The notes beneath the pieces are model-generated. The model was not told where the DNA came from and made no database searches. It saw nothing but the letters and a program-made list of their open reading frames with translations. Source: an uncultured Verrucomicrobiae bacterium (GTDB taxonomy: Bacteria > Verrucomicrobiota > Verrucomicrobiia > Palsa-1439). Taken from it: DNA of 64,000 nt. Below are positions 38,724 through 61,907 of this stretch, in pieces. Numbering within the stretch: the stretch's first letter is position 1; each line of letters opens with the position of its first letter. The stretch lies in NCBI GenBank assembly GCA_963842185.1, contig CAWJFL010000018.1, forward strand, positions 1,262-65,261, written 5' to 3'. A program made the position numbers and the translations under genes.

Positions 38724-38724
38724 C

Positions 38725-40797: not shown

Positions 40798-40930
40798 AGA
40801 TCACATGGGTAAGCCGATCTCGTCACACGGAGCGGCGTTGCGCGACTGTTCGGGCTGACGCCAACGGAGTGGATGCCCGGGGTTGCCAACCCGCACTCTG
40901 GCAAAGCACACGGAATGGGGTGATACTGGG

Positions 40931-43315
40931 ATGTCTCGGACCATGGAACCTGCGCCACCAACCGCTGTCGCGAGCGAACCGGCCGGGCCGCCGTGCGCCG
41001 ATGCGCCCGGCCTGACCGCCGCCGAAGCCCGACTGCGTCTTGCGCAGGTCGGTCCCAACGCCGTGCGCGAGGAACAACCCCATCCGCTCCGTCAATTCTT
41101 GCGCCGGTTCTGGACGCCGATTCCGTGGCTGCTGGAAGCGACCATCCTCATCCAACTCTTTCTTGGCGAACGGGTCGAGGCGAGCGTCATCGGGGGGCTA
41201 CTGGTGTTGAATGCGGTCCTGAGCTTTCTGCAAGAAGGTCGCGCCCAAAAGGCGCTGGCGCTGCTGCGGCAGCAACTCCACGTCGAGGCCCGCGTCCGGC
41301 GCGACAGCCAGTGGAACACCATCAGCGCGGAGGACCTGGTGCCCGACGACCTGATTCATCTACGCCAAGGCGGCATCGTGCCTGCCGACGTGCGGGTGTG
41401 CGACGGTTCGCTGCTGGTGGACCAGTCGGCGCTCACCGGCGAATCCGCTGCTGTCCAAATCCCGCAGGGTAAAACCGCCTACGCCGGCGCGTTGGTGCGG
41501 GGCGGTGAAGCCACGGGCATCGTCACCGCGACCGGCGCGCGCACCTTTTTTGGCAAAACGGCGGAATTGGTGCGCACCGCCCATGTTGTCAATCGGCAGG
41601 AGCACGAGATCGTCCGCGTCGTGCGCGATCTGTTCGTGTTGAACGCGGGCCTGATCGTCATCGTCTTTGGCGTGGCGCATGTCCGGGGGCTGACGTTGGT
41701 GTACACGCTGCCGCTGGTGCTGACGATCCTGCTGGCATCCATTCCCGTCGCGCTGCCGGCGACATTCACGCTCGCCGCGGCGCTCGGCTCGTTGGAGTTG
41801 TCGAGGTTCGGCGTGTTGGTGACGCGCCTGAGCGCGCTGCACGACATCGCCTCGATGACCGTGTTGTGCACCGACAAAACCGGCACGCTCACGCGCAACG
41901 AGGCAACCCTCAGCACGTTGCGTCCCGCGGACGGATTCACCGAGGAGCAGTTGCTGCGGGCCGCGTGGCTTGCCAGCGATCCGGCGGGGCACGACCCCGT
42001 GGACGGCGCGATGGTGCGCGCGGCGGTAGCGCGGGGTCTGGCGGGCAACGGCTCGATGCGTGTCGAGTTCAAGCCGTTCGACCCCGCGACGAAGCGCGCC
42101 GAAGCCGCGTATCACGAGGCCGATGGCGTGCGCCGCTACACGAAAGGCGCGCCCGCTGTCGTCGCCGAACTCTGCGGCGTGCCGGAGCCCGTGTGGCTGC
42201 CGCGAGAACAGGAACTGGCCGCGCGCGGCCAGCGCGTGCTGGGTGTGGCTACCGGCGAGGACGGCCAACTGCGGTTCGCCGGTTTGGTCAGCCTCGAGGA
42301 TGCGGTGCGCGACGATTCCCGCGCGGTTGTCCAAGCGATCCACGACGCCGGCGTGCGTGTGGTGATGGTAACGGGCGACAACACGCTCACCGCCCGCGCC
42401 GTGGCCGAGCAGGTGGGGATTCCATCGCAGGTGTGTCCGCCCGCCGACCCACATGGCGACCTCAGCGATGGCGCGTTGGAAAACAGCGTGTTCGCGGGTG
42501 TGTTTCCCGAAGACAAATTCAAGCTGGTCCGCGCCTTCCAACGGCAAGGGGCGGTGGTGGGCATGAGCGGCGACGGGGTGAATGACGCGCCCGCGTTGCG
42601 CCAGGCCGAGGCGGGCGTGGCCGTGGCCAACGCCACCGATGTGGCCAAGGCCGCCGCCGCCATCGTGCTGACCCGTCCCGGACTGGCCGACGTGGTGCCG
42701 GCCATCGAAGCGAGCCGGCGGGTGTTCCAGCGCGTGATGACCTACACCCTCAACATGCTCGCCAAGAAAATCGAGCTCATGCTGCTGCTGGTCATCGGCT
42801 TCCTCCTGACCGGCCACAGGCTCCTCACGCCCTTGCTGATGGTGCTGATCATCTTCCTCAACGACTTCCTCACGATGTCACTCACCACCGATCGCATGAG
42901 CGTGTCGGCACAGCCCAATCAATGGCGAACCCGCGCCGTCGTGACCGCCAGCACCGCGCTCGCCTTCTGCAAACTGGTTTTCAGCCTGGGGGTGTTTCTG
43001 CTGGCAGACTACGTCCTGCGCCTGGACCCGGCGCGGCTGCAAACGCTGACGTTTGCGACGCTGATTCTGACGTCCCAAGCGGGTGTGTATCTGTTGCGCG
43101 AGCGCCACCACTGCTGGACCTCGCCTCCCAGCCGCGACATGCTCGGGAGCACGGTCTTCGGCCTGGGCGTGACGGCGGCGCTTGCGCTGTCGGGTTGGCA
43201 CGTGCCCGCCATCCGCCCGGCCTTGCTTGCCGTCGTCGCCGTCGCTGCGGTTCTGTATTTCCTGGCGCTGGATTGGTTCAAAGTCTGGCTGTTTGCGCGG
43301 CTGCGCCTGCGGTGA
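40931..43315 (+). CDS. P-type ATPase, P3A (proton-efflux) type
   Basis: PIPWLLEA, LTGES, SIPVALP (TM4), DKTGTLT, GDGVNDAPAL, FLNDF (TM6 Asp). Confidence 0.85.
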   Translation: MSRTMEPAPPTAVASEPAGPPCADAPGLTAAEARLRLAQVGPNAVREEQPHPLRQFLRRFWTPIPWLLEATILIQLFLGERVEASVIGGLLVLNAVLSFLQEGRAQKALALLRQQLHVEARVRRDSQWNTISAEDLVPDDLIHLRQGGIVPADVRVCDGSLLVDQSALTGESAAVQIPQGKTAYAGALVRGGEATGIVTATGARTFFGKTAELVRTAHVVNRQEHEIVRVVRDLFVLNAGLIVIVFGVAHVRGLTLVYTLPLVLTILLASIPVALPATFTLAAALGSLELSRFGVLVTRLSALHDIASMTVLCTDKTGTLTRNEATLSTLRPADGFTEEQLLRAAWLASDPAGHDPVDGAMVRAAVARGLAGNGSMRVEFKPFDPATKRAEAAYHEADGVRRYTKGAPAVVAELCGVPEPVWLPREQELAARGQRVLGVATGEDGQLRFAGLVSLEDAVRDDSRAVVQAIHDAGVRVVMVTGDNTLTARAVAEQVGIPSQVCPPADPHGDLSDGALENSVFAGVFPEDKFKLVRAFQRQGAVVGMSGDGVNDAPALRQAEAGVAVANATDVAKAAAAIVLTRPGLADVVPAIEASRRVFQRVMTYTLNMLAKKIELMLLLVIGFLLTGHRLLTPLLMVLIIFLNDFLTMSLTTDRMSVSAQPNQWRTRAVVTASTALAFCKLVFSLGVFLLADYVLRLDPARLQTLTFATLILTSQAGVYLLRERHHCWTSPPSRDMLGSTVFGLGVTAALALSGWHVPAIRPALLAVVAVAAVLYFLALDWFKVWLFARLRLR

Positions 43316-43508: not shown

Positions 43509-43547
43509 GCCGCCGTGGCGGAACTGGCAGACGCGCTGGACTCAAAA
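43509..43547 (+). repeat. att site: 39-bp copy of the tRNA-Leu 5' half
   Basis: gccgccgtggcggaactggcagacgcgctggactcaaaa is identical to 61821-61859. Confidence 0.95.
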
Positions 43548-43809: not shown

Positions 43810-44193
43810 ATGAGTCAACCAGTGAAGCTTTCAGATGCGTTGGTCTTGGACGCCCGTCTGGCCGGGAAAACGGTTGAGCGCTCCATTGCGGGACAAGTGG
43901 AATTCTGGGCCAGAATCGGCAGGGCTATCGAGCCGTTGCTTCAGGGCACGCAGGTGCTCACCTTGTGCCGTAATGCCGCGACGCGCCCGTTGTCCGAGTG
44001 CCTGAAATCCGTGGATTCGCCCGCTGGTCGCCGCCGCGTGACTGAATTTCTCCAAGGTCAGCCGTATCCCCACTACGAACCCCACCCAGACCAACCCGGC
44101 GTGCTTATCCGCATTGAAGCGAACGGGAAGCGCGCGGTCGGGCGATTCGTCAACCGCCAGTTCCAGCCGGTCAAGGTGAAAGCCGCGCGGTGA
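43810..44193 (+). CDS. ParD-like antitoxin
   Basis: VKLSDALVLDARLAG..RSIAGQVEFWARIGR ribbon-helix-helix pattern. Confidence 0.75.
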   Translation: MSQPVKLSDALVLDARLAGKTVERSIAGQVEFWARIGRAIEPLLQGTQVLTLCRNAATRPLSECLKSVDSPAGRRRVTEFLQGQPYPHYEPHPDQPGVLIRIEANGKRAVGRFVNRQFQPVKVKAAR

Positions 44194-44771
44194 TGAGCCT
44201 GCCGCTCGACCGCCGCCCAGTCATCGTTGCACTCGCGGGGCCGAATGGCGCAGGCAAAACCACTTTCTACCATGCCCATCTCCAGCCTGCCGGGCTGCGT
44301 CTTGTTAACGCCGACGTACTGGCGCGGGAACTGAACCTCGATCCCTACGCAGCCGCGGACTTGGCCGAGGCGCTCCGGCGGCAACTGGTGGAACAACGCG
44401 AAAGTTTCGTGTTTGAAACCGTGTTCTCTGACCCGGTCGGCGACAAGCTGACTTTCCTGAAAGAAGCGGCGGCAACCGGCTACAACGTCGTTCTGTGCTT
44501 CATTGGAATTTTCGGCCCGGAAGTTTCCGAAGAGCGCGTCGCGATGCGCGTCTCGCAAGGCGGACATGATGTACCCGCCGAAAAGTTGGTCTCGCGATTT
44601 CCTCGCACGCTGGCGAACCTCAAGACCGCCATCCGAGAGCTTCCGCATGTGTGGATTTTCGACAACGACGATTTGCGGACTCCATTCCGTCAAGTGGCTG
44701 TTTTTGAAAACGGCCAGCGGGTGAGCCTGAATGAGCCGGTGCCTGCGTGGCTTACGCCGTTGCTGGCGTAG
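44190..44771 (+). CDS. Zeta-toxin-like P-loop ATPase/kinase
   Basis: AGPNGAGKTT, VNAD, FETVFS, RVSQGGHDVP. Confidence 0.82.
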   Translation: MMSLPLDRRPVIVALAGPNGAGKTTFYHAHLQPAGLRLVNADVLARELNLDPYAAADLAEALRRQLVEQRESFVFETVFSDPVGDKLTFLKEAAATGYNVVLCFIGIFGPEVSEERVAMRVSQGGHDVPAEKLVSRFPRTLANLKTAIRELPHVWIFDNDDLRTPFRQVAVFENGQRVSLNEPVPAWLTPLLA

Positions 44772-44835: not shown

Positions 44836-45585
44836 TTAGACAAACAGTGATACGCACACCGACTCCGGGTGGCGATGATCCAGCCGCAACCGGCAGCCAA
44901 ACACAGCAGACATGCTTTCTTCTGTAAGTACCTCAACAGGTCGCCCTGCCATTGCCAAGCGGCCTTGAGCGAGCAGAAAGGCATGGTCCACAAACATTGG
45001 TGCAAATAACAAATCGTGGCAGACCATCAGCACCGTACAACCTCCCGCTGCCAAGGTTTGGGCCAACCGGTACACTTCGAGTTGGTGAGCGATGTCGAGG
45101 TGGCTGGACGGCTCGTCCAACAACAATACCGGCGTTGCTTGCGCTAACGCCCGTGCGATCACCACGCGCTGCCGTTCACCACCACTCAACTCGTCGAAGG
45201 GACGCTCCGACAATTCCGCCGCACCCACGCGCGTCAGGCTTGCCTCGATCACGGCTGCATCCTCGTCGCCGAGCGCGAACCGTCCTAATGCGACCATCTC
45301 CCGTGCCGTCAACGGCACGCCACGTGGCGTCTCCTGTGGCACGACGGCGATCCGCCGAGCCACCTCGCGCGGCGTGAGCGCATCAACCTGCTGGTCATCA
45401 CACCACGCCGTGCCCGACTGCGGCCGCAACGCGCCGGTCAGGCATCGCAACAACGTGCTCTTGCCGCTTCCGTTCGGCCCGAACAAGCCGGTGACCTTGC
45501 CGGTTGCGATTTCAAGATTCAACTCCCGCAACACCGGCGTGCCGGTTCGGTAGGCGAAACTCAGATTCTCGACGCGCAAGTTCAC
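44836..45585 (-). CDS. Iron-chelate/cobalamin-class ABC transporter ATPase
   Basis: GPNGSGKST, LSGGERQR, LDEPSSHLDIAHQ. Confidence 0.92.
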   Translation of the reverse strand: MNLRVENLSFAYRTGTPVLRELNLEIATGKVTGLFGPNGSGKSTLLRCLTGALRPQSGTAWCDDQQVDALTPREVARRIAVVPQETPRGVPLTAREMVALGRFALGDEDAAVIEASLTRVGAAELSERPFDELSGGERQRVVIARALAQATPVLLLDEPSSHLDIAHQLEVYRLAQTLAAGGCTVLMVCHDLLFAPMFVDHAFLLAQGRLAMAGRPVEVLTEESMSAVFGCRLRLDHRHPESVCVSLFV

Positions 45586-46559
45586 AGCGTTATCTTCCTC
45601 CGCAGCAGCCACAGAAAGACCGGCGCGCCGACCAGCGCCGTGAGAATGCCGACCGGGATTTCCGCTGGGGCGGCGAGCGTCCGTGCCAGTGTGTCGGCTA
45701 CCAACAACAGCAACGCGCCCCCGAGGGCCGTGGCTGGCACGAGACGGCGATGGTCACCGCCAACCGCCAGCCGCAGCAGGTGCGGCACGATCAGGCCAAT
45801 GAATCCGATCACGCCGGTCAGACTCACCGCCGCCGAGGCCGTGATGGCGATGAGCAGCAGCAACGCGTATTGAAGCCGTGGGACGTTCACGCCGAGGTCG
45901 CGCGCCGACGTTTCGCCGACGAGCGCGACGTTGAGCGAGCGGGCGAGCATTACCATTGTGACGAACGCGCCGAGCGCGACCGGCAACATCACCAGCACGG
46001 CCCGGCCATTGGCTTGCCAAAGACCACCCATCAACCAGAAGATGACCGCCGGCAGGCGTTCACCCGCAAGGTAGAGCGCGCCGGTGGTCAGCGCCGAGCA
46101 GAGTGCCGCGATGGCGATGCCGGCCAGTAGCAGGCTTTGACCGAAGAACGTTCCGCGCCGGCCCAGCGTGAACACGAGAGCGGTCACAGCCAGCCCGGCA
46201 GCGAAACTACCGATCGGCACCGCGACACCGGCCAGCATTGCGGCAACCGCACCGAGGGCTGCGCCGTTGGAGACACCGATGATCGAGGGCGTGGCGAGCG
46301 GATTGCGAAAGAGCGTCTGAGCGGCGAGCCCGCTCAATGCCAGCGCGGCACCGACACTACTGGCCAGCACAATGCGCGGCAGCCGGACAGTTAGCAGGAT
46401 TTGGTCGGCGGTGTCGCCTTTGGCCCGACCGCATGCGGCGCGGAATAGCCGTCCGGCCACTTCGCCTGCCGGGATGTAGACGCTGCCGACCCCGAACGCG
46501 ATGACGGCAACGCCGAGCAAAGCGATGAACAGGCCGAGTTGTAACGTGTTGCGGTTCAT
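45582..46559 (-). CDS. FecCD/BtuC-family permease
   Basis: VRLPR, QTLFRNPLA, GETSARDLGV, GVIGFIGLIVPH, EIPVG. Confidence 0.93.
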   Translation of the reverse strand: MNRNTLQLGLFIALLGVAVIAFGVGSVYIPAGEVAGRLFRAACGRAKGDTADQILLTVRLPRIVLASSVGAALALSGLAAQTLFRNPLATPSIIGVSNGAALGAVAAMLAGVAVPIGSFAAGLAVTALVFTLGRRGTFFGQSLLLAGIAIAALCSALTTGALYLAGERLPAVIFWLMGGLWQANGRAVLVMLPVALGAFVTMVMLARSLNVALVGETSARDLGVNVPRLQYALLLLIAITASAAVSLTGVIGFIGLIVPHLLRLAVGGDHRRLVPATALGGALLLLVADTLARTLAAPAEIPVGILTALVGAPVFLWLLRRKITL

Positions 46560-47293
46560 GCGATCTGACGCACGGCGAAGCGGTCGTCGCGCGGCACGAG
46601 GTTCAACGCTTCTTCAACGGTGAGATGCGAGGCGTCCACCTTGTCCAGATGCTGACGGCAAACCGTCACAGCTTGCTCCATCTGCGCCGCGGTCGGACGC
46701 GGGAACGGTTGGCCGGGCACGGGGATGTACCCCATGATGTGAAAGGGAATAGTCCGGTCGAGCGCTGCCACCCACGCGGCGACGGCTTCGACTTGATCGA
46801 GGTCCACGAAGCGGGGAATGAATACGATGTTGGCGCGCATCTCCAGACCACCGCGATAAGCGGCAGCGAAGTTGTCGAAGAACGGCTGGCGTTCGCGACC
46901 GGTGTAGCGGCGGTGAACCTCGTCGTCCCACGCCTTGAGGCCAACGTTGGCGCCATCGAGATTCGGCAATGGCAACCGCAAACCAATCGTGTGACCGAGA
47001 AAGGTGCGAACGCCGAGTTCCTGCTTGCAGAACGCGAGCGCTTCCGGCAGTTCGGTGGCGACCGTAGGTTCGCCGCCCATAAAGTTTACTTTCTCGACTG
47101 GCACGCTGCGCAGGGCGCGGCGCACCTCGTCCATGCTGAGGAACCGGGTCGGACGCGGCGTGATCTGGCCGGGACGTCCGTTCGGGCCACTGCGAAGTTT
47201 GTAACTGCAGGTGGGACAACGCAGCGTGCAGCCGAAGTTGTGGACGGTGGCGAACTGGTGTTTCTCATTGTACGTGATTCTGTGGAAAGACAC
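46556..47293 (-). CDS. Radical SAM enzyme (activase-like partial barrel)
   Basis: CTLRCPTC (CxxxCxxC) and FMGGEPT. RBS AAGGAG precedes the GTG start. Confidence 0.9.
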   Translation of the reverse strand: MSFHRITYNEKHQFATVHNFGCTLRCPTCSYKLRSGPNGRPGQITPRPTRFLSMDEVRRALRSVPVEKVNFMGGEPTVATELPEALAFCKQELGVRTFLGHTIGLRLPLPNLDGANVGLKAWDDEVHRRYTGRERQPFFDNFAAAYRGGLEMRANIVFIPRFVDLDQVEAVAAWVAALDRTIPFHIMGYIPVPGQPFPRPTAAQMEQAVTVCRQHLDKVDASHLTVEEALNLVPRDDRFAVRQIA

Positions 47294-47295
47294 GG

Positions 47296-48145
47296 TCAGT
47301 TCTCCTTTCCGTCGGCGCGATGGATAATCGCGCGCAATTGCTCTACGGAGGCGGACAACTGGCTGCCAGCCACCAAACAATTGCGGCCGACGCCGTAAAC
47401 GGCACCGCGACGGACGGCGCGCAGTTTGGCGAAGCCGGGACGTTGGCTGATGGCGTCGGCAGTGGTAAAGCCGTTGACGAAAAGAATTACATCCGGTTCG
47501 GCGGCAATGAGTTGCTCCGGCGAAAACACAACGCTGCCGCGCGCCACGCCCGCGGCGATGTTCGTGCCGCCGGCCAGGGTGATGAGGTCGTTGACATAGC
47601 TGTCACCGCCTACGGTCTTGAAGGCACCGTAGAGTTCGAGATACACGCGCGGCGGATTGGCGGGCGCGTTGGTGTGCAAGTATAGGAACGCGACAAGGTC
47701 ATCCGCAAGCCGGTCGGTGAGAGCTTCGCGTCCGACGCGTTGGCCAATGAGCCGAACTGGTGCCCGGTAACTCGGCGACGTGACCGGCACGGATGCGCAC
47801 TACTGGAACCGACAGTTCCCCGAGCAGCTTCGCCGCGTCGTCCTGATACCACCAGATAAACGCGAGGTCCATGCGCCGTGCGAGAACTTCTTCGCGCGAG
47901 AGCGCGCTGCCTTTGGCAATGACTGGTATGTTGGTCGCGCCGGGTACGACGCGACTGTACTCATCGATGGCCGCCAACTGGTCGCGCGCGCCGACAGCCA
48001 GCAGCACGTCCGTGGCGGTGGTGCAGAGGCTGAGGATACGTCGTGGCGGCTCGGCCAAGCCATTGGGAGAAAAAACGAAACCAAGCAATACGAGACCAAA
48101 TGTCGAAAGAAACAACCGCCCGATTGAAGTGAGAGCGCGCATCAT
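47296..48145 (-). CDS. BtuF-like (helical backbone) substrate-binding protein, frameshift near 47760
   Basis: Signal peptide, PRRILSLCTTATDVLLAVG, then in the second frame GGDSYVNDLITLAGGTN and SPEQLIAAEPDVI. Confidence 0.85.
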
Positions 48146-49593
48146 GGCACCAACAGGCGAACGCGATAGTAGCGGGCTGGACCGTTCGTGGCCCCCCCAC
48201 GATCAGTTGCGTTAGTCAGGACGTTGCCGAGCGTGGTAATGATATTGGTGAGACCCGTGCTCGCGAAATTATCCGTGAAACCTTCCCGGGCGTCGCCCGC
48301 AGCGTATTCCAATATGTTGGTCTTGCCCTGCCCAAACAAACCACTTGGATCCCCACCGGATGTCTTCCACGTGATTTGAACGTCGTTGCCTTGGGGGACC
48401 TCGCTTGTGATAGCGAACACGGACGCTGGATTGGTCGGGTTCAACCCGAGTAGGAATTGGTTGGTATTGCTGATGCCCTTGCCGTAAGGGTCGGCATTGG
48501 CTTGGGCCCGGGGGCAGTTCGTGCAGTTGAAGTAGAGCATCTGCCACTGCTGCCACGGCGTCAGCACCGTTGGTCCCGTGATGGTCAGCACGGCAATTTG
48601 CGGTCGCAATCTGGATGCCACCGGCGACGGCACGTCAGCAGAGCACACGGAGAAGGTGATGTTGTTGCTGAAACTGGCCACGCAGGAGGTGACATTGAAG
48701 TCCACGATGCTCGGTCCGTAGTCCAAGCCGGTGGCCGACGGGTCCCACTCAGCGACACCGTCTCCTCCAAATTGAGTGCCGTTGAAATAGAGACGGTTGT
48801 TTTGACCGTCGGGAGCGTATGTATATAGCGCCTGCAATGCAGCAGAATTCACTTGGGCGATGTTGAGGCTACCGAAGGCCACTGTGCGGCTGCAAACTTC
48901 ACCGCTGGTCGGCACATTATAGATGTCGCCGCTACCCTCAGCGATGGCGTACTGAAATTGGTTGCTCAGCGCGCTCTGTTGATAGATGGATAGAAGCGAC
49001 ACTTGCATGATACGGCCATCGAATGAGTTGGATGTCGTAACCGTGATGGCGACCAAGTTGGAGGACCCGTCGGTATGCAGGTAGTTGGTATTGACCGGCA
49101 ACCCGACGAGCCAGACGCCGTACCCGCTACCGTACACAGACGGTTGGGTCGCGCTGAAGGAAGCATTGGTGTCGCTCGTCGAACCGAAATTCAGGCCACC
49201 GGACGCAAGAGCATTGCTGTTAACAGAGACGCTGAGGTTGGCGGTGTAATCGGGGGTGCCGCCCCAAAGAGTGAGAACGAGACGGCCGGTAACAACGTTG
49301 TCACAGGGTGGCAGGGCAAAGCTTACCGGCACGTTGTACGGCTGGCCAACCGCCGGGTTCCAGGCCATGTTTGTCCAAGTCGCCGAGGTCCCCATGTAAA
49401 GCGAGGCGTTGGCAACCGTGCCGCTGAGCACGGTCTGCATCCCTTGCCCGGCGAAATTGTACGTCGCGTTGCAGTGCGGTGCAGCCAACACAAACACCCC
49501 GACAGCAAGCGCGTCGATGAAGCCGCGTCGCCGACGATTCGGTCGTATTCGCCACGGCCGACAGCCACTCTTGCTTGCATGAAGCGAAATCAT
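48142..49593 (-). CDS. Secreted DUF3344-like beta-rich protein with a verrucomicrobial C-terminal domain
   Basis: RRRRGF plus hydrophobic signal (Tat-like). WGG, VYGSGYGVW and FDGRI segments recalled as DUF3344-like. C-terminus PWQQWQMLYF..ADPYGKG..ARYYRVRL. Confidence 0.65.
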   Translation of the reverse strand: MISLHASKSGCRPWRIRPNRRRRGFIDALAVGVFVLAAPHCNATYNFAGQGMQTVLSGTVANASLYMGTSATWTNMAWNPAVGQPYNVPVSFALPPCDNVVTGRLVLTLWGGTPDYTANLSVSVNSNALASGGLNFGSTSDTNASFSATQPSVYGSGYGVWLVGLPVNTNYLHTDGSSNLVAITVTTSNSFDGRIMQVSLLSIYQQSALSNQFQYAIAEGSGDIYNVPTSGEVCSRTVAFGSLNIAQVNSAALQALYTYAPDGQNNRLYFNGTQFGGDGVAEWDPSATGLDYGPSIVDFNVTSCVASFSNNITFSVCSADVPSPVASRLRPQIAVLTITGPTVLTPWQQWQMLYFNCTNCPRAQANADPYGKGISNTNQFLLGLNPTNPASVFAITSEVPQGNDVQITWKTSGGDPSGLFGQGKTNILEYAAGDAREGFTDNFASTGLTNIITTLGNVLTNATDRGGATNGPARYYRVRLLVP

Positions 49594-50279
49594 TGTGAGG
49601 CATCCCAATCTTGCTTTGTGGTCGTGGTTCTTCGCTCGACGTGTCCGTCGAAAAACAAAGCGTCGAAACTGTTCCCCGCGTGCCGGTAATTCACATCCAC
49701 GACTGGATCGCTGAAAATGCCACCGCCTCCGCAGTAGTACTTCCCCGGGGTACAATCGGCGATGAAGATCGTCCCGGAAGGTCGGGCGATGTTCCGCTCC
49801 TTGACGCCGTACCATAAGCAGTATGGTATGCCCGCGAAATTGAAAGAGTTGATTCCATAGCTGAGCGTGATCTGTAAGTCCCAAGTGCAAGGAATTGCTT
49901 TCAGATCTGCAGGACAACGAAACACGCCGGATTGCTTTGGAATCAACGGTTTGATCAGGTCCATCCACCGACATGAGGCGTTGATATACGCGGGCGGCGT
50001 CACCCCGCAGTCATCCAGGTACAGGCGCATCGCCAGTCCAATCTGATGCAGGTTGCTCAAGCAAGCGGCCCCCTGCGCTGTGCGCTTCGCGCGACCGAGA
50101 GCTGGAACAAGCATTCCCGCCAGCACTGTGATGATCGCAATCACCACGAGCAACTCGATGAGGGTAAACCCGGGTTGACCGTTCTTTGCACACCCTCCGT
50201 TGGGGAAAGGGCGCATGCGGCCCGGTTTCTGAAGAAGACCTTTGTCAAGCGAGATGCCGAAGCGGGTGACTCCTTTCAT
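49590..50279 (-). CDS. Prepilin-type N-terminal cleavage/methylation protein (PVC H-X9-DG-like family)
   Basis: G|FTLIELLVVIAII, CLSNLHQIGLAM..Y, FRCPAD, RHAGNSFDALFFDGHVE. Confidence 0.9.
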   Translation of the reverse strand: MKGVTRFGISLDKGLLQKPGRMRPFPNGGCAKNGQPGFTLIELLVVIAIITVLAGMLVPALGRAKRTAQGAACLSNLHQIGLAMRLYLDDCGVTPPAYINASCRWMDLIKPLIPKQSGVFRCPADLKAIPCTWDLQITLSYGINSFNFAGIPYCLWYGVKERNIARPSGTIFIADCTPGKYYCGGGGIFSDPVVDVNYRHAGNSFDALFFDGHVERRTTTTKQDWDASQ

Positions 50280-50280
50280 C

Positions 50281-50308
50281 GTGTGACGAGTATTATGATA
50301 CGTAACAC
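50281..50308. promoter_or_regulatory. NikR-type operator overlapping the leftward promoter
   Basis: GTGTGAC-N14-GTAACAC (28 bp). Minus-strand TTGACG-N17-AATACT promoter at 50317-50289. Confidence 0.78.
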
Positions 50309-50431
50309 CACCGTCAAGCCCATTCGCGCTCATTGCACCACAACAACGCGGGCGTTTCCGGTGACAACCCGACGATTTCCGGAGCTACGCACAATCAACC
50401 GCTCCGGGGCTATGCAATTCGCGCTTGACAG

Positions 50432-50459
50432 ATGTTACGACCATTTATACACGTAACAC
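50432..50459. promoter_or_regulatory. NikR-type operator overlapping the rightward promoter
   Basis: ATGTTAC-N14-GTAACAC (28 bp) directly after TTGACA (50425-50430). Confidence 0.8.
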
Positions 50460-50502
50460 CAAAACAAATCGTCGCACATCAATATCGAAGGAAACCACTG
50501 TT

Positions 50503-51738
50503 ATGAAGAAACAACAAACCTACTTCACCGTACTCGCAACCACGCTGTTTCTATTCAGCGGGGGTGCCGCCCGGGCCCAGTTCACCTTGATCGAGTCGTT
50601 TAGCGGCACGAGTGGGGCCAGTCCTGGAGCGAATCCATATTACGGCGCGCCGGCCATTTCCGGATCAACTCTCTACGGAGTGACCGACTACGGCGGCAGC
50701 ACCGGCAAGGGCGTGGTCTATTCGATGAACACCGATGGCAGCGACTACACAATCCTGCATACGTTTACCGGCTCTACGTCCGACGGTTATGGTCCTCTCG
50801 GTTCGGTGGTGCTGAGCGGCTCGACCCTCTACGGGACGACCTACTACGGTGGCAGTGCCAACGACGGCGTTATCTACTCGGTCAATACCGATGGCTCCGG
50901 GTACCAAACGTTGTACAGTTTTACGACCGGTGCTGGCTACAAGCCATACAGTACTTTGCTGATGAACGGCTCGACCGTCTACGGGACGACCTACTACAGT
51001 AATGGCGGCCTCGGCTCGATCTTCTCGTTCAACACCTCCAGTTCCAGTTATAGCAATCTTTACACCTTTACCGGCGGTCCTGGGAGTGGCTCCAGTCCTC
51101 TTGGTGGTGGGTTGATAATGAACGGTTCAACGCTCTACGGAATGGCCACACACGGAGGCTCCAGTACCGTCAGCAGCAAGGATGGGGTTGTCTTCCAAAT
51201 CAACCCGAACGGCAGCGGGTACACCAACCTAGTCAACTTCGCCGGCGGATCGGATGGCGCCAATCCCTACGGCGGGCTGACGCTGGCCGGCTCGACTCTC
51301 TATGGAATGACCCGGATCGGCGGCAGCGCCAACGATGGCACGATATTCTCGGTCAATCTCGATGGCACCGGTTACACCAATCTGTACAGCTTCAGCGGCG
51401 GCGCACCGAGTGGCGCCAACCCCAACGGTTCGCTGACGTTGGCTGGCTCGACTCTCTATGGAACGACCAAGAGCGGTGGCAGCGCGAATGATGGCACAGT
51501 GTTCGGGATCAATCTTGATGGCACTGGTTACACCAATCTGTACAGCTTCGCCGGCGGAGCGGATGGCAAGAATCCGGACGGTGATCTCTCGGCGGTCGGC
51601 AACACCCTCTATGGATGGACTTCCGCGGGTGGCAGCGCGGGTGACGGCACGGTCTTCGCAATAACGATTCCGGAGCCGTCCAGCTACTCATTGCTCGGTT
51701 GCGGGTTGGCAATCTTGTTGTTCCTTCGCCGCCGATAG
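50503..51738 (+). CDS. GloVer-type tandem-repeat beta-propeller protein with PEP-CTERM
   Basis: Signal peptide, about 7 repeats of GSTLYGTTxxGGSANDGTVF..DGTGYTNLYSF, and IPEPSSYSLLGCGLAILLFLRRR. Confidence 0.88.
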   Translation: MKKQQTYFTVLATTLFLFSGGAARAQFTLIESFSGTSGASPGANPYYGAPAISGSTLYGVTDYGGSTGKGVVYSMNTDGSDYTILHTFTGSTSDGYGPLGSVVLSGSTLYGTTYYGGSANDGVIYSVNTDGSGYQTLYSFTTGAGYKPYSTLLMNGSTVYGTTYYSNGGLGSIFSFNTSSSSYSNLYTFTGGPGSGSSPLGGGLIMNGSTLYGMATHGGSSTVSSKDGVVFQINPNGSGYTNLVNFAGGSDGANPYGGLTLAGSTLYGMTRIGGSANDGTIFSVNLDGTGYTNLYSFSGGAPSGANPNGSLTLAGSTLYGTTKSGGSANDGTVFGINLDGTGYTNLYSFAGGADGKNPDGDLSAVGNTLYGWTSAGGSAGDGTVFAITIPEPSSYSLLGCGLAILLFLRRR

Positions 51739-51764
51739 CGCCAGTGCCAGAGCGTAGCGGTGCA

Positions 51765-52187
51765 TCATCCCGGCAAATCTTTTCCGGTGCCGGTGATGGT
51801 GAGCTTGCCGTGTTTGACGCCCTTGGCGGCGATGAGTTCGTCGGCCAGTCTTTTGATGTCAACGGCCTTGCCGCGCACCGCGAGGATTTCAAGGCAGTTG
51901 TCGTGGTCGAGATGACAGTGCAGCGCGGAGATAATCACCTCGCGGTGCTCGTGCTGGAGGTCGGTTAGCAAGTCCTGCAAGTGGTGCTTGTGATGGTCAT
52001 ACACGAGGGTAATGCTGCCCGCGATCTCGCCCCGGCCCAACTGTTGCCGGTGTTCGACCAGATGGGCGCGGATCATGTCCGCAATAGCCAGCGACCGATT
52101 GTCGTAGCCTTTCTCGCCGCACATGCGATCAAGTTCGTGCAGGAGTTTCTTGTCGAGCGAAACGCTGAAACGGGTGACCTTTTCCAT
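51765..52187 (-). CDS. nikR: Nickel-responsive transcriptional regulator
   Basis: RFSVSL RHH strand, YDNRSLAIADMIR, YDHH, QH, HCHLDHDNCLE nickel ligands. Confidence 0.96.
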   Translation of the reverse strand: MEKVTRFSVSLDKKLLHELDRMCGEKGYDNRSLAIADMIRAHLVEHRQQLGRGEIAGSITLVYDHHKHHLQDLLTDLQHEHREVIISALHCHLDHDNCLEILAVRGKAVDIKRLADELIAAKGVKHGKLTITGTGKDLPG

Positions 52188-52467
52188 AGTGTTACGGTTT
52201 CTCATGAGTAGTATTATTATGAGCGCCTGCGTCAAGCGTTTTTTGCGGCGTGACGTTTTCGTGGGAAGAACCTGTGCAGGACCAGTCCGTTCTCCGTCGG
52301 CGAAATTCGGACGCCACCGAAGTCTGCGCTGCAACCCCCGCCGCGCGCGCCAGCAGCGGGCAACTGCCTTGCCGCCCATTCTGTGTCTCGGCGGCGGCGG
52401 TGCCAGATGCTCGGAGTTCCCTGTCGACGCGTCCGCGATAGGCGATTGTTGGCTATGTCACTGCTGA

Positions 52468-53508
52468 TTATTCGACGGCGCAACCCACCCGAAAACCGTG
52501 AATGTCCTTCTGGTCATGCGGTGCATCGCCATCTCGATAGGCGGAGCATATGCGGTAGAACGGATGCATCCATCCATCCCCTTTGTTCGACCGACAACCG
52601 CCCGTAGGCGGCCCAACGGGATCGACCACGGCATCACGCGTGAACGGTGCATACCAGTCGGCCACCCATTCACGTGCATTTCCGATCATGTCGTACAATC
52701 CCCATGGATTCGGCGGGAACGAGCCAATCGGTGCCGTGTATTCATAACCGTCGTCTGCCCAGTGAAGATGAGTCTTCTCACTGCTGCGGGGTCCGCCAAT
52801 GTTCGCCTTGGTGCGATCCTCAACGTTGTCACCCCAGTACGTTAGGTTCGTGGTGCCGGCGCGGCAGGCATATTCCCACTGCGCCTCGGTAGGCAGGCCG
52901 TACAGATGGCCCTCTTTCTCCGACAACCAGCGGCAGAATAGTTGCGCCTCTTGCCACGTAACGGGCTGTACCGGGTGGTTGTCGCCATCGGTCCCCTCTT
53001 GATAAAACGGGCGGCGATGTTTGTGCTGTGTGTCGTACAGCTCGAATTGCTTGTTCGACACTTCAAATGCACCGATGATATACGGCTTGGTCAGCGTCAC
53101 TTGATGCTGCAGGTACATCGGACCGTCCTGACGCTCAGGGCCTCCACCCCGTGGGGCGGTCGGTCCGACGGAGTTGGTCATATTGTCCGGCAGCCCCATC
53201 AGGAATGTGCCGGGTTCGATGCGCACCAGCTTCATGCCGATGGAATTGACGAAGTACGTGACCTTGGCCGGTTTCATCCCCTCCGGCGCAGCGGTTTGGA
53301 CCTCAACGGTTTCGTTTGACCACGCAACAGGCGGGTTGGGCCATTGCGAACGATCCACCGGCGGCAAGTCTTGCATCGTCAGATCGACATGCCACTGCTG
53401 ACGATACCAAAAATTCACCCGATCAATGGCTCTCCACACAGCCGCGATCACGACCAACGCTATGACAATCTGGAGGATCCATTTCTTGGCCTTGCTTGGT
53501 GTGGACAT
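52468..53508 (-). CDS. Formylglycine-generating enzyme (SUMF1)-fold protein, membrane-anchored
   Basis: NSIGMKLVRIEPGTFLMG, LPTEAQWEYACRAG, NPWGLYDMIGNAREW, GFRV. Confidence 0.9.
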   Translation of the reverse strand: MSTPSKAKKWILQIVIALVVIAAVWRAIDRVNFWYRQQWHVDLTMQDLPPVDRSQWPNPPVAWSNETVEVQTAAPEGMKPAKVTYFVNSIGMKLVRIEPGTFLMGLPDNMTNSVGPTAPRGGGPERQDGPMYLQHQVTLTKPYIIGAFEVSNKQFELYDTQHKHRRPFYQEGTDGDNHPVQPVTWQEAQLFCRWLSEKEGHLYGLPTEAQWEYACRAGTTNLTYWGDNVEDRTKANIGGPRSSEKTHLHWADDGYEYTAPIGSFPPNPWGLYDMIGNAREWVADWYAPFTRDAVVDPVGPPTGGCRSNKGDGWMHPFYRICSAYRDGDAPHDQKDIHGFRVGCAVE

Positions 53509-53653
53509 TTGCAATTGAGAATAGTCGTGCTCTTGCATTTGTGTCAAGCATGTCCAGCGGGGGAGAGCACACAACCGTCACGGCGCGGAGGTTGAAAATG
53601 GGAGGCCCAGGTTAGGCGGCTTCCAACTTACTCAAGCTGCCAGAGCGCCCCAG

Positions 53654-53719: not shown

Positions 53720-54730
53720 CTAGAAGTGATAGCTCACGTAGGTCTTCAAGAGCCACCGCGCGACCAACTGATCGCCACGAAAATCCATGAACACGGGCAC
53801 TTCGACATCCGTGTAGAAGCTGATCGGATGAACATCCACCTCGATACCAGGGGATACCAGAATCCGCTGGTAGCCGGAGGCCACGGGGTGGGCGGACTCT
53901 GCACCGTGGTCGCTGGTGCGTTCGGAAGCAATTACCTGGGCCAACGGCGTGACATGCGCGTTGTGGATCATCCAGCCTTTTGGGTAGAGGCCAGCGGCAA
54001 CATCGAGTTCGGTTCCCGGTGCGTACTGATTTCGTGTAATGATCGGCTGGTCCAACAACGCCTGTGCGAACCAGGTCAGACCGATGTCACCCGGGAGATT
54101 CCCTTGATGATAGCCGCCAAGAAGAATATCGGTGCTCCCCGTCCCGAGTTCCGAGTCACGATCGATGTCCCCAAATGCGTCGTTGTGGGTATAGTCGCCG
54201 GTCGGCAGTTTGAAACCGAAGTTTATGCCGGTGGACATATCCGGGGAAAACCCCGTGTAGATGCCTTCGACCCGAATGTCGCCAAGACTCGCCCAGTTGA
54301 GAGATACGATGTCACTGCCGGAGGCACCGCCGGTTGTCTTGAAGTATCGTTCGTCATACGGCACCTCGACCTGAAATCCCCAACTGCGGTCGAACATGTA
54401 CTGGAAGCCGGCGGTAACGAAGTGGGTGCGTATTTCCTTGTCATCATTATCGCCTCCTGGCGCCGGCGAGGTTCCATGCCAATTCTGATGCTGATCCTGG
54501 TAGTCATAATTGACATAGGCCATTCCACCTGCGCCTTGAGGAAGCATCAAGCCTGTGCCCACGTCGAAAACACCACATCCACACGCACACGCCCAGCCAA
54601 CTCGGGGCGTCAGAGCCACTCCCAACAACAATGCCAGACCAATCACCTTATTCACTGCACCGAAGCTTGTCTTCCGGTTGTTCATCTGTGTAACAACCGA
54701 CATCGAAACAATTGTGTTCTTCATTTTCAT
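53720..54730 (-). CDS. Outer-membrane beta-barrel protein with an N-terminal CACGC motif
   Basis: Signal peptide ending GWA|CACGCG, amphipathic strands, GLGDI-like and KLPTG motifs, terminal YxF. Confidence 0.72.
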   Translation of the reverse strand: MKMKNTIVSMSVVTQMNNRKTSFGAVNKVIGLALLLGVALTPRVGWACACGCGVFDVGTGLMLPQGAGGMAYVNYDYQDQHQNWHGTSPAPGGDNDDKEIRTHFVTAGFQYMFDRSWGFQVEVPYDERYFKTTGGASGSDIVSLNWASLGDIRVEGIYTGFSPDMSTGINFGFKLPTGDYTHNDAFGDIDRDSELGTGSTDILLGGYHQGNLPGDIGLTWFAQALLDQPIITRNQYAPGTELDVAAGLYPKGWMIHNAHVTPLAQVIASERTSDHGAESAHPVASGYQRILVSPGIEVDVHPISFYTDVEVPVFMDFRGDQLVARWLLKTYVSYHF

Positions 54731-55812: not shown

Positions 55813-58800
55813 TCAGACACCAATGCCGCGAGAGTGGCCGATGCTTCCAGGCGGGGTGATGCCCCGACGCAGCTTGCGGCGGGTGGACTGCTCTTGCTGC
55901 AGAGCTTCTTTGACCGTGCGAGATCGTTTGAGGCCGCTGGTTCGTTTGACGGAGTCAGCCAGTTTGACGGATTCAGCCTGTTTTATGGACTCAGCTTGTT
56001 TGATGGACTCGGTTTGCTCAAACTTGGTCGTGACAGTTTCCTTTTGCTCAATGACGGACCGTTCGCGAAGCCATCGCTGCACATCTTCGGCCACCTGTGC
56101 GAGCCGTTGCACCGGAGACAAACGCGTGGCGCGGAACACTCGCGGCGACTGACGCATCGGGCGCACCGTGCGAAAATCTTGGTGCACCGTGGACACCGGG
56201 GTGCCGATATTTTGCTCTTGCTGCGGTTGTCGCAGGAAACCGAGTTTGGCCAGGTCATCGCGCAGGCCTTGGAGTTCGACGGCAGCCTTGCGTTCGCGCG
56301 AATCGGTCACGCGACGCGCGAGCAGTTCGACATCATCGGTGAAGACCTGGACGTGTTTACGCCCGCGAGAAATGGAAACGTAGAACTGTTCGCGGTTCAC
56401 CGCGCCGAAGGAACGCGACGATGCGACCAGGAGCACGTCATCGACGGTCTTGCTTTGTGATGAGTGCGAGGTGACGGCGTAGCCGTGGGTGAAGGTGTTG
56501 AAGGTGCCGGGCAGCACCCGGCCGTCGGTGAGCGTGATGCGGCCGCCGCTGATCTCCCGCACCTGAACGCGCTCGCCGTTAATGAACTCTTTGCCGTGAT
56601 TGGCTTGCAGCAACAGCCAATCGCCAGCGGCGACTTTCAACTCGCGGGACACGCCCACGTCGAACGAGGCGGCAGCACTGGCCGGGATAAAATCCACTTC
56701 CATTCCATCGGGACGGCGAACGCGCAGTCCGTTTTCGAGAACGGCTCGGATTTCGACCGTCTCGCCCCGATCAAAGTCGCGCGTTTTTCTGACAAAGCGC
56801 AGGCGTTGACCCGGTTCGTACTGGTTCGTATTCTTCTTTTGCGCTTGCGTCCACGAGAGCGAATCGAAAACGCACACTGTCTGCTCATCCTGGCTGACGA
56901 CACCCTCAACTTTCAGAGCCTCGCGCACCTTCTCCGTGACCGCTTCAATCTCGCCCCAAGTGGGTGAGACCAACAGTGCGGACCGTCCTTGTTTGGTCGC
57001 CGACAGGTATGCCTCAGCCGCCCGCTGGTAAAGCTGCCCATCCTCCGTCGCCGCCTCCGTGACCGCGCCAAGTTCCACGAGCTTGGCAAACGCCTTGTCG
57101 GTCTGTTTGGCGGCAGCCAGTTCGACCACCTGACGGAAGGCGGCGGGTTTCTGGCGACGGATGGTGGTCAATTCGCTGAAGCGGTAGGAGGAATACTGTT
57201 CGAGGATGCGGAGCGCATCCCCACGAGCAACGGAAGCGTGCTGGCCGGTGTCGCCGGAGAGCACCACACGAGCGCCGTTACTAACGGCCAGATCGAATAG
57301 TTTCACCATGTCATCGAGGCCAACAGCGCCGGCTTCATCCAGGACAATCACGCTGCGGGCGGAAAGTGTTCGCCGCATGGCCCAATCCGTCAGCAGCCTG
57401 GCGAGCGTGACCGATTCCAGCTTGTCCTTGCGCAGCGTATCGGCAGCGGCAGCAGTCGGAGCGCAGAACAGGGCCTCGAAACCTTCATTGTCGAGAATGC
57501 GGTTCAGTTCGACCAGAACCGTGCTTTTACCGGTGCCGGCCAAGCCACGAAACCCCGTGAAGCGGTCCGGGCTGGTGAGCAACATGTTCCAACGCCTTGC
57601 GCTGATCCGGGCCGAGATGAGACGCCGGTTCATAACGGCTGGTGATCGGGGCGATAGTGTCGATGGCGGCGTTGACCGTGCGAATCAACGAAAGCTCCTT
57701 GGTGAGGATGTCGCGGGTCGAGAACTCCGAACCGACGCGCACCAGTTCGGAGCGTTCCGCCAGCGCATTCTTGAGCAGCGGCAGGTCCAGTTGGCCGCAG
57801 CCGTTGACCAGGGCGGCTTCCAGAATCTTGTGTTGCGGCGCGACCGAGGCGCGCTCGAAAACGTGCGCGATGCCGTGGTCAACAGCCTCGCGCATCGTGA
57901 CCAAGTGGGCGAAATCCTCCGACTGACCATTGGCCGCTTCGACCACTTTGCGCAGCGCCCGTTTCTCGAAGAAACCGATCTCACCAAGCTGCTGTCGGCG
58001 CACTTGATCATCGGACGCGCCCTTGAGCTTCTTGGGGCGGGACTGGTGGACGACGTGAGCGATCTCCTGCTTGGTCAGTTTGCGACCGAGCTTCGCCTCC
58101 TGACGTTTGACGGCCAGGTCCCGTTGCTGCGACCGTTTCGAGAACCGGTCAATCAACTCAGGCGCGACGCCCTCGATCTCGAACCCGTTGGCGGCCTTCC
58201 GGGTGCGGTAGCCGAGCCGGTGGAGCCGCTTGGCCAGTTCGTTGCGATAGACGGCTGTGCCGTAGTTGAGTGCGCCGAACATATCGCCGGTTTGCAGCGC
58301 CTTCCACCGCTTCTCGGTGTTGTCCCAGGTGCAGTTGAACAGGACGAAATGCGTGTGCAGTTGCGGGTCCAGGGCGCGGGAAGACGTGTGCAGGAACGCT
58401 GCGCCGACCAGGTTGCCGGTGGTGCGATCCTGATCCTCGATGCCGCCCTTGCGAATGCGCGTGGCGGCGAACTGCTCAAGCTCGCGCAAGCGCCATCGTG
58501 GAGGCCTCTTGGTGTGCTTCGATGATGCGATGGTCATTCATCGTGACCGCAAGAATCGACACCGACTTGGGCGGCGAGCAGACGAAGTCGAAGTAGAGCC
58601 GACGGTCCCGGAACTGCTGCGGCGTGAGTCGTTCACCGGTCATCGGGTGCAGGTTGTCGCAGAGGCGCAGGAACACTTCGCGGGTGACAGGCTCACCTGG
58701 CTGCAAACCCAACCGTTCCGCGCCGATGCCAATCCAATGACCACCTTGATCGTGGGCCAAGACTTCGCCCTGGGTGTAGTAATCGTTGTGCGACAGGTGC

Positions 58801-61820: not shown

Positions 61821-61907
61821 GCCGCCGTGGCGGAACTGGCAGACGCGCTGGACTCAAAATCCAGTACCAGCAATGGTGTGTGGGTTCGATTCCCTCCGGC
61901 GGTACCA
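61821..61907 (+). tRNA. tRNA-Leu (CAA)
   Basis: Cloverleaf with a long variable arm, anticodon arm ctgga-ctCAAaa-tccag, GGTTCGATT and encoded CCA. Confidence 0.96.

Follow-up and report, generated by a model that had tools for sequence, protein, structure and literature searches.

A mobile NikR-linked module joining a FecCD-type importer to a minimal radical SAM enzyme, and its probable part in nickel uptake

In anaerobic heme uptake loci the radical S-adenosylmethionine (SAM) enzymes ChuW and HutW free the metal in the cytoplasm without oxygen. The case treated here concerns what is probably another metal and a locus of curious composition: a six-gene operon that combines an importer of the FecCD/BtuCDF class with an unnamed radical SAM enzyme and two secreted proteins, beside a nikR gene and inside an integrated island, in a 64,000-nucleotide stretch of contig CAWJFL010000018.1 (positions 1,262 to 65,261; assembly GCA_963842185.1) from an uncultured Verrucomicrobiae bacterium. 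We call this whole stretch the window. Pieces of the arrangement are familiar from elsewhere. Helicobacter pylori has a FecDE/CeuE-type nickel importer, NiuBDE, that is linked to NikR, together with the TonB-dependent receptors FrpB4 and FecA3, which NikR represses (PMC5140060); for the delta-proteobacteria, Rodionov and colleagues predicted the NikR consensus GTGTTAC-N13/14-GTAACAC (PMC545781); and on Methanoperedens plasmids a NikR gene is followed by extracellular DUF3344 proteins and an energy-coupling factor (ECF) transporter (bioRxiv 10.1101/2022.02.01.478723).

We think it probable, with reservations set out below, that this module is a NikR-repressed system for importing an organic nickel complex that is processed, once in the cytoplasm, by the radical SAM enzyme. 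The original prediction, made from the letters of this DNA, started from the premise that FecCD-class importers lie outside NikR regulons. That premise was incomplete: because NiuBDE of H. pylori is established (PMC5140060), such an importer under NikR is not new in kind. NikR-controlled nickel uptake via TonB-dependent receptors and FecCD-type importers is thus known already, and what is new is the obligatory radical SAM enzyme, the DUF1559/DUF3344 context and the mobility of the whole regulon. A literature search returned no description of the enzyme, of a prepilin link or of the whole module (supplementary regulon tables may list the enzyme); DUF3344 appeared otherwise only as a table row of adhesin-like clusters, and a search by name gave no assigned function for DUF1559 prepilin-like proteins. 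Across many anaerobes, bacterial and archaeal alike, the radical SAM enzyme is linked with regulators of nickel and with importers.

The operon, its regulator and its predicted operators

The operon spans 44836-50216 on the minus strand, with the prepilin-type gene first and the ATPase gene last. To judge from the coordinates, one of its junctions is an overlap of 31 nt and the other four are ATGA-type 4-bp overlaps or a gap of 2 nt; since the genes overlap or nearly abut, we take all six to be translationally coupled. The radical SAM gene begins with GTG, 2 nt past the stop of the binding-protein gene, and has AAGGAG in front of it. Permease, ATPase and binding protein (PF01497, 2.4e-10, in the C-terminal half of the last) stand in one operon and together make up a type II ABC importer of the BtuCD/FecCD class. 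Family scans and coordinates bear out the gene content and order that had been read from the sequence, as they do the divergence from a GloVer-repeat PEP-CTERM gene on the opposite strand and the adjacency of nikR to the latter.

44836-45612, minus: ATPase of an ATP-binding cassette (ABC) importer (PF00005, 1.3e-33; NCBIfam rows led by heme, F420-0 and corrinoid ABC ATPases, none of them reaching its cut-off)
45582-46559, minus: FecCD/BtuC-class permease (PF01032, 1.3e-83; best NCBIfam row BtuC, 2.6e-75, below its cut-off)
46556-47293, minus: radical SAM enzyme of 245 aa, from an unnamed, highly conserved family (PF04055, 3.7e-13; CxxxCxxC)
47296-48145, minus: class III (BtuF/heme-type) periplasmic binding protein (Peripla_BP_2; copy in the window split at about 47757)
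48142-49593, minus: secreted DUF3344-like protein (orthologues pass PF11824; core at about residues 43-340)
49590-50216, minus: prepilin-type protein, putatively of a DUF1559 subfamily (N_methyl motif; class III signal G|FTLIELL; PF07963, TIGR02532)
50217-50279, minus: in-frame remnant of a nikR 5' end (MKGVTRFGISLDKGLLQK...), recognised by aligning the DNA with the 5' regions of nikR in the window and in locus L007
50281-50308: predicted NikR box 1, GTGTGAC-N14-GTAACAC, one base off GTGTTAC-N14-GTAACAC
50432-50459: predicted NikR box 2, ATGTTAC-N14-GTAACAC, one base off the consensus, upstream of the GloVer gene
50503-51738, plus: GloVer-repeat protein with signal peptide and PEP-CTERM anchor (TIGR03803, 3.2e-58, six stretches)
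51765-52187, minus: nikR (NF003381, 180.7 bits against a cut-off of 105; PF08753, 2.1e-31; PF01402, 1.2e-05)
52190-52196: single GTGTTAC half-site before nikR, its dyad broken by a 10-bp insertion

The regulator has both domains expected of NikR, an N-terminal ribbon-helix-helix (PF01402) and the nickel-binding domain (PF08753), and matches the Pyrococcus horikoshii NikR structure at 2.1e-41. Its nickel-site motifs H-x-H-x5-C and QH align (phmmer) with those of Escherichia coli NikR, 1q5v, 'lhchldhdnc' falling on 'lhvhinhddc' and 'qhehr' on 'qhhhh'; the high-affinity ligands of the E. coli protein we take to be H76, H87, H89 and C95.

Each of the two divergent promoters carries a 28-bp dyad, as had been noticed from the sequence, and each dyad departs by one base from the consensus predicted for delta-proteobacteria. 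With up to one mismatch to GTGTTAC-N13/14-GTAACAC, these two, which share one 150-bp divergent region, are the only sites in the whole 4.18-Mb genome, and we read them as predicted NikR operators. Box 1 overlaps the spacer and -10 element of the operon promoter, TTGACG-17-AATACT (-35 at 50312-50317, -10 at 50289-50294), and box 2 lies directly 3' of a TTGACA at 50426-50431. The window holds no site that fits the consensus without mismatch, and none of the N13 form even with up to three mismatches. A third site in the window, at 54669-54696, has three mismatches and was not counted, there being three sites against a chance expectation of about 1.1 at that stringency.

Between box 1 and the prepilin gene lies what amounts to a nikR fossil, comprising promoter, operator, ATG and about 20 codons, and in locus L007 nikR itself immediately precedes the prepilin gene. 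From the fossil and this order we conclude that the arrangement in the window arose by a rearrangement that copied the nikR promoter. The extant nikR of the window keeps one half-site of its operator after the 10-bp insertion. The remnant is still in frame with the prepilin gene. At both nikR-type promoters (50217-50279 and 52189-52230) about 8 nt separate the end of the -10 element from the ATG, with no recognisable Shine-Dalgarno sequence, so that leaderless translation of nikR is possible and its mRNA may be leaderless.

As assembled, the binding protein of the window is divided between two overlapping frames by one extra base at about 47757. This frameshift is an assembly error: in four of four public DNA runs from one study, of soil and freshwater sediment, every contig covering the site omits one base at 47757 and is otherwise identical (region 47300-48150), and the base is also absent from the near-identical relatives L005 and L006, the L005 protein being intact at 282 aa. 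The same contigs dispose of the idea that the split marks a pseudogene in a decaying operon. Comparable breaks in three further genes of L005 fit an error-prone consensus sequence.

By profile, the binding protein is closest to solved binders of iron complexes, heme and B12 (1.5e-28 to 6e-21), among its matches being the heme binder ShuT at 3.2e-25, BtuF at 6e-21 and HutB at 4.1e-19. The H. pylori nickel binder 4ino is matched only at 1.7e-08, with thirty-two other solved binding proteins scoring better, and the protein is not orthologous to NiuB/CeuE. Nor does the importer qualify as a cobalamin BtuFCD system: its BtuC, BtuD and BtuF rows all fall below their cut-offs, and no cobalamin riboswitch accompanies it in the window or in the 13 PVC loci tested.

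Of the two secreted proteins, the one labelled 'DUF3344-like' takes that label from its orthologues. The protein of the window has no Pfam match even at E<=5, and six of ten scanned proteins (the window protein and nine orthologues) pass PF11824 with 46-62 bits against a cut-off of 27.2; all six are orthologues, aligning with the window protein at 31-56% identity. Its core is modelled as two beta-sandwich domains (predicted local distance difference test, pLDDT, 82.6), for which a fold search gave a general two-jelly-roll likeness only, at template modelling (TM) scores of 0.2-0.3 to malectin-like ectodomains, PNGase F and capsid proteins. Because orthologues often end in PEP-CTERM or dockerin-like anchors, we regard it as a surface protein. 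A C-terminal domain of about 140 aa (48142-48560) has 27 further matches elsewhere in the genome (39-52% identity) and has the look of a domain for surface anchoring or sorting that is peculiar to the lineage. In the 'H-X-DG prepilin' protein the N-terminal prepilin motif is there (PF07963, 34.6 bits; TIGR02532, 29.9 bits against 16.3); the H-X9-DG model TIGR04294 matches only four of 24 family members, whose conserved motif here is RH-x10-DGH, alongside invariant Cys, His and Trp residues. On DUF1559 (PF07596) the window protein reaches 16.6 bits against a cut-off of 23.3, and 22 of the 24 match at E<=0.01, from which sequence evidence the family is best classed as a diverged DUF1559 subfamily. 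A complex prediction of the DUF3344 core (43-345) with the prepilin body (40-208), each protein with its own alignment, scored 0.04 and 0.14 where the mark is 0.32, and is uninformative either way. The GloVer reading frame is open from 50425, with a likely ATG at 50503, and its PEP-CTERM end is weak (TIGR02595, 17.1 bits against a cut-off of 16).

The enzyme and its neighbours across bacteria and archaea

Membership of the radical SAM superfamily is clear (PF04055, 50.4 bits against 29.5), and beyond that the enzyme escapes classification. It matches no curated family, with 11 NCBIfam rows at E<=0.01 of which none is HemN/ChuW-type; its only sequence matches in the PDB are MoaA and the lipid synthase GDGT-MAS, 7tol; and a protein-cluster atlas offers only generic 'PFL-activating enzyme family / radical SAM' clusters. 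Some 500 relatives were found, the best 120 of them 62-96% identical and nearly all exactly 245 aa long. Across 24 aligned members mean column identity is 79%, C22, C26 and C29 are invariant, and so are several histidines (H18, H101, H127, H185, H215 and H223). An AlphaFold 2 model (pLDDT 90.4) is a minimal radical SAM barrel with one cluster motif, closest in fold to the pyruvate formate-lyase activating enzyme (PFL-AE; TM 0.70) and matching NifB, MoaA and viperin too. On glycyl-radical activase models it scores far below the cut-offs (TIGR04041, 30.1 against 250.2; TIGR02494, 23.9 against 174.35).

Scanning species-representative genomes yielded 163 confirmed places; 80 of these, with flanks of up to 10 kb, were retained as loci and compared by tblastn with the window proteins and by clustering all open reading frames (ORFs) within 7 kb of the enzyme gene. 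Clade labels come from record titles together with cassette type; the relatives are all metagenome-assembled genomes, for which mis-binning is possible. The carriers are Verrucomicrobiota, Planctomycetota, Lentisphaerota, Syntrophales/Smithella, Methanomassiliicoccales, other Thermoplasmata and one Bathyarchaeota genome, and their enzymes are 54-99% identical to that of the window by tblastn. Relatives of Victivallis vadensis are among them (L063 and L064). No glycyl radical enzyme gene occurs among the conserved neighbour clusters.

The enzyme keeps three kinds of company. Throughout the Planctomycetes-Verrucomicrobia-Chlamydiae (PVC) group the order is prepilin, often DUF3344, binding protein, radical SAM enzyme, permease and ATPase, with the prepilin in 41 loci, DUF3344 in 22 (the Lentisphaerota loci mostly lacking it), the binding protein in 50 and the permease in 47. 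Among the Syntrophales, 18 of 19 loci place the enzyme directly after a 206-aa membrane protein of no known family, itself preceded by a fused pair of ECF ATPases (TIGR04520, 357.6 bits, cut-off 315) and a T component of the CbiQ type; this protein, in the position of the S component, matches neither the CbiM/NikM model nor any other family. Fuller Syntrophales loci add tonB, exbBD and a TonB-dependent receptor (12 loci), often with nikR ahead of the ECF genes, and the Verrucomicrobial locus L024 has such a receptor where others have prepilin and DUF3344. The best NCBIfam rows for the Syntrophales and L024 receptors are TonB-B12 and TonB-hemin, all below cut-off. That a receptor holds the same operon place lends indirect support to the envelope-capture role proposed for the prepilin and DUF3344 proteins. 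Archaeal loci are more varied: L031 has nikR and, further on, binding protein, permease, ATPase and enzyme; the Bathyarchaeota locus L028 has hypA, nikR and larC in a row (14526-16644) and an importer beside the enzyme; and in six of nine loci the enzyme has no importer within 7 kb, so that it shows no strict dependence on one. In Methanomassiliicoccales L033 the neighbours (an ArsA ATPase, a flavin reductase, a lipocalin and a major facilitator superfamily protein) offer no functional clue.

The nickel regulator recurs in this company. At least 31 of the 80 loci, in five lineages (Syntrophales 10/19, Lentisphaerota 7/18, Verrucomicrobiota 6/14, Planctomycetota 5/20, archaea 3/9), have a nikR gene no more than about 10 kb from the gene for the enzyme, and since many loci are short this count is a lower bound. 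Within 400 bp upstream of the prepilin gene, an exact TTAC-N13-15-GTAA dyad is present in 17 of 37 loci, compared with 47 of 5000 random windows, and a site with up to three mismatches to the full consensus likewise in 17 of 37, compared with 74 of 3000; four prepilin loci whose gene lies too near the locus end were omitted from both counts. Upstream of the archaeal enzyme, exact GTAAC...GTTAC pairs occur in two of nine loci and in 23 of 5000 background windows. Linkage of the GloVer gene is confined to the window and the near-identical L005.

Several observations stand beside these counts. L028 shows several NikR-box-like dyads at 14002-15504; near-match dyads seen by eye in L028 and L056 were not counted. 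In the Syntrophales locus L051, group II intron domains lie between nikR and tonB (2307-2912). The 'Anaerolineae' and 'Solirubrobacteraceae' labels of L011, L074 and L018 were set aside, their cassettes being of PVC type; we grouped them with the Planctomycetes as probably mis-binned, and the L018 enzyme is identical to that of an Isosphaeraceae record.

The original prediction had called for the neighbourhoods to be scored for nikR against cobalamin riboswitches, and that search comes out on the side of nikR. Neither the window nor any of 13 PVC loci tested (13/13) contains a cobalamin riboswitch. Three of seven tested Syntrophales loci have two each, downstream of the enzyme, where they precede a separate FecCD-ATPase pair and a second receptor and not the genes from nikR through tonB, receptor and ECF components to the radical SAM enzyme. 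Because riboswitches are absent from the window and the PVC loci and front separate genes in the Syntrophales, the cobalamin control that would count against a nickel function was not encountered. The riboswitch-controlled B12 uptake locus abuts the NikR-linked operon at L039 12475-14697, L046 13436-15658 and L073 11845-14023.

The tRNA-Leu island and its mobility

Operon, GloVer gene and nikR lie within an 18.3-kb island integrated at a tRNA-Leu gene: an integrase stands beside the tRNA, and the first 39 bases of the latter are repeated exactly 18.3 kb away, as an integrative element, proposed from the outset, should have it. Regulator, operators, importer and enzyme move together as island cargo. 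A maximum-likelihood tree of the enzyme (77 of the 80 loci plus the window, three being omitted with an ORF below 235 aa or not clustered; root arbitrary) fits repeated transfer, in line with the island: the Syntrophales come out as a single clade (95/83), the archaea fall among the Planctomycetota and in turn enclose Isosphaeraceae, and Verrucomicrobiota and Planctomycetota are interleaved, with 6 and 10 label changes. One Verrucomicrobial genome has three diverged cassettes on three contigs, L005-L007, with enzymes 99, 96 and 92% identical to that of the window, which may be paralogous islands or several strains in one bin. Because the whole regulon is mobile and the tree interleaves phyla and domains, nickel acquisition appears to be traded within anoxic communities.

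The remaining features of the island are:

43509-43547, plus: attL, an exact 39-bp copy of the 5' part of tRNA-Leu (exact-match scan of the contig)
43810-44193 and 44190-44771, plus: ParD-like antitoxin (PF11903, 3.6e-14) and kinase with zeta-toxin domain (PF06414, 1.5e-13)
52468-53574, minus: membrane-anchored protein with a formylglycine-generating enzyme (FGE)-sulfatase domain (PF03781, 3.2e-44), the same neighbour as in L005
53720-54760, minus: secreted protein of 346 aa, of no known family, with CACGCG after the signal peptide
55813-57633, minus: TraI/RecD-like helicase (PF13604, 4.1e-39; PF22232, 1.1e-08)
60578-61708, minus: tyrosine integrase, next to the tRNA (PF00589, 1.3e-20)
61821-61907, plus: tRNA-Leu(CAA), whose first 39 bases (61821-61859) are attR

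The ParD/zeta pair is likely to serve island maintenance. The 346-aa protein has no Pfam or NCBIfam match; a homologue of 52% identity lies directly upstream of nikR in L007, and the protein may be a candidate outer-membrane component of the nickel system. A copy 92% identical to it, apparently frameshifted, is on contig C7 of the same genome. That genome, 88% complete, encodes a [NiFe] hydrogenase large subunit and HypA on contig 19, and no CbiM or NiCoT was found in it. DNA of the window recurs in soil, peat and freshwater sediment runs.

Outside the island, the stretch immediately left of attL (37353-43315) encodes a sigma-54 response regulator, a histidine kinase and a P-type cation ATPase. 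The segment 30001-36000 has a G+C content of 0.55-0.56 against about 0.60, with a Clp protease gene, a helix-turn-helix regulator and several family-less ORFs, and could be foreign DNA as well. An ABC exporter (ABC_membrane plus ABC_tran; 27682-29516, minus) is split into two ORFs, probably by another single-base assembly error.

Cargo, rival explanations and known systems

Under the reading that we favour, nickel scarcity would make NikR leave both operators overlapping the divergent promoters, and this derepression would yield the surface GloVer/PEP-CTERM protein and the products of the six-gene operon. The prepilin-like DUF1559 and DUF3344 proteins would then take hold of an organic complex of nickel or help it across the outer envelope, the task that would fall to the TonB-dependent receptor in the Syntrophales; import into the cytoplasm would be the work of the BtuF-class binding protein with the FecCD/ATPase importer; and there the radical SAM enzyme would act on the complex, making nickel available to enzymes such as the [NiFe] hydrogenase whose gene lies elsewhere in the genome. 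We infer three of these points: that the cargo is nickel, that the two surface proteins work at the envelope, and that the enzyme acts on the cargo. For NikR control and a nickel function, as originally proposed, speak the genome-unique boxes, the recurrence of nikR in at least 31 loci, the enrichment of dyads upstream of the prepilin gene and the hypA-nikR-larC row of L028. A cargo-processing role is suggested because the enzyme is the only common part and its gene is wedged between transport genes; and as it is common to three types of importer and no protein partner is shared by all three contexts, a small-molecule substrate, the cargo, would be the simplest common factor. From an obligatory enzyme it would follow that nickel arrives in a form that needs radical chemistry, which bears on what natural nickelophores are.

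A number of points weigh on the other side. The operators are predictions from the DNA, the exact dyad is missing upstream of the prepilin in 20 of 37 loci (short loci making the observed share a lower bound), and in 49 of 80 loci, many of which are short, no nikR gene was seen. The enzyme is alone in six of nine archaeal loci. The profile of the binding protein resembles binders of iron complexes, heme and B12 and lies far from the H. pylori nickel binder; the DUF3344-like and DUF1559-like proteins of the window themselves fall below Pfam cut-offs; and the GloVer linkage is restricted to the window and L005.

What form the nickel might take is where the explanations part. The cargo could be F430 or another inert nickel porphinoid from methanogens, with the enzyme opening or altering the ring anaerobically, as ChuW and HutW do with heme, a specific proposal that we consider unlikely. 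Nickel release from a macrocycle requires ring chemistry, which would explain the obligatory enzyme. The transport parts look tetrapyrrole-like, from the BtuC row of the permease and the heme and corrinoid rows of the ATPase to the ShuT, BtuF and HutB matches of the binding protein and the TonB-B12 and TonB-hemin rows of the Syntrophales and L024 receptors. Anaerobes from methanogenic environments carry the module (Smithella/Syntrophales, Victivallales, Methanomassiliicoccales and peat Planctomycetes), the window DNA recurs in soil, peat and freshwater sediment, and the module abuts a riboswitch-controlled B12 uptake locus in three of seven tested Syntrophales loci. Yet the family rows are far below curated cut-offs, so that they indicate class and not specificity; the 245-aa enzyme has no HemN/ChuW-type NCBIfam match and is closest in fold to PFL-AE; the neighbourhoods inspected showed no gene for F430 or tetrapyrroles; and methanogens that make F430 carry the enzyme too, often alone, which sits poorly with scavenging. 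It is doubtful that anaerobes of methanogenic habitats mine nickel from inert tetrapyrroles (F430 or its breakdown products) via a mobile pathway in which a new minimal radical SAM enzyme dismantles the macrocycle, with the PVC bacteria feeding it by a DUF1559 pseudopilin and a DUF3344 protein instead of a TonB-dependent receptor; if true, this would give a first function to two large families of unknown role.

The enzyme might instead be biosynthetic or a maturase, making a small nickel chelator or helping to load nickel into a cofactor or enzyme when the metal is scarce, while nickel that is free or loosely bound, or the chelate on its return, enters through the importers. This would suit the archaea, where the enzyme stands alone in most loci and, since NikR-box-like pairs precede it in two of nine (23 of 5000 in background), can belong to a nickel regulon by itself; in L028 the nickel insertion genes larC and hypA are close by; and H18, H101, H127, H185 and H215, at or near the ends of core strands in the model, would suit a metal-handling site. 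However, no exporter or further biosynthetic gene is conserved beside it, its PVC position is fixed between binding-protein and permease genes with overlapping or abutting codons, and in the Syntrophales it directly follows the ECF S-component, a transport-coupled pattern, all of which makes this account quite unlikely in our eyes. Finally, the cargo might not be nickel but a corrinoid, heme or an iron chelate, with the NikR link incidental or a secondary control, as the class of binding protein, permease, ATPase and receptors and the adjoining B12 loci of some Syntrophales would allow. The recurrence of nikR and NikR-box linkage in five lineages, the want of a cobalamin riboswitch in the window and in all 13 PVC loci tested, and the Syntrophales riboswitches fronting separate downstream genes and not those from nikR to the enzyme render this highly improbable.

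ChuW and HutW provide the working analogy, being radical SAM enzymes inside metal-chelate uptake operons; no sequence relation to them was found, and the enzyme here is a minimal one of 245 aa. With PFL-AE (PDB 3c8f) it shares size and the minimal radical SAM fold (15% identity at the TM score given above), and it differs in scoring far below the TIGR02494 cut-off and in having no glycyl radical enzyme among its conserved neighbours. Comparable in kind is NiuBDE of H. pylori, likewise a NikR-linked set of FecD-type permease, FecE-type ATPase and class III binding protein with a TonB-dependent outer-membrane step, as in the Syntrophales and L024 versions, whereas NiuBDE, as described, comes without a radical SAM, prepilin-like or DUF3344 protein (PMC5140060). 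The binding protein also sets the two apart, matching NiuB/CeuE at 1.7e-08 and its best match at 1.5e-28. NikMNQO/CbiMNQO of delta-proteobacteria share the operator consensus (PMC545781), and the Syntrophales version shares with them the ECF ATPase pair and CbiQ-type T component; its S-position protein, however, matches no CbiM/NikM, the window has no ECF part, and the accessible text of PMC545781 describes no radical SAM enzyme for those systems.

For the surface proteins there is a likeness to the BtuB-BtuG/BtuH system of Bacteroides, in which accessory proteins encoded with the importer catch scarce vitamin B12 at the surface for the outer-membrane step (PMC10404256), and we propose by analogy a BtuG/BtuH-like capture role for the GloVer, DUF3344 and prepilin-like proteins. 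The families are unrelated, the window operon has no TonB-dependent receptor, and regulation falls to NikR, with no riboswitch involved. The Methanoperedens region differs in being on an archaeal plasmid, in that the available portion of its account mentions no radical SAM enzyme, and in that its transporter was read as a possible biotin importer, and is alike in constituting an independent association of NikR, DUF3344 and an importer (bioRxiv 10.1101/2022.02.01.478723). DUF1559 and DUF3344 gain a concrete setting here, the operon position that a TonB-dependent receptor occupies in other lineages.

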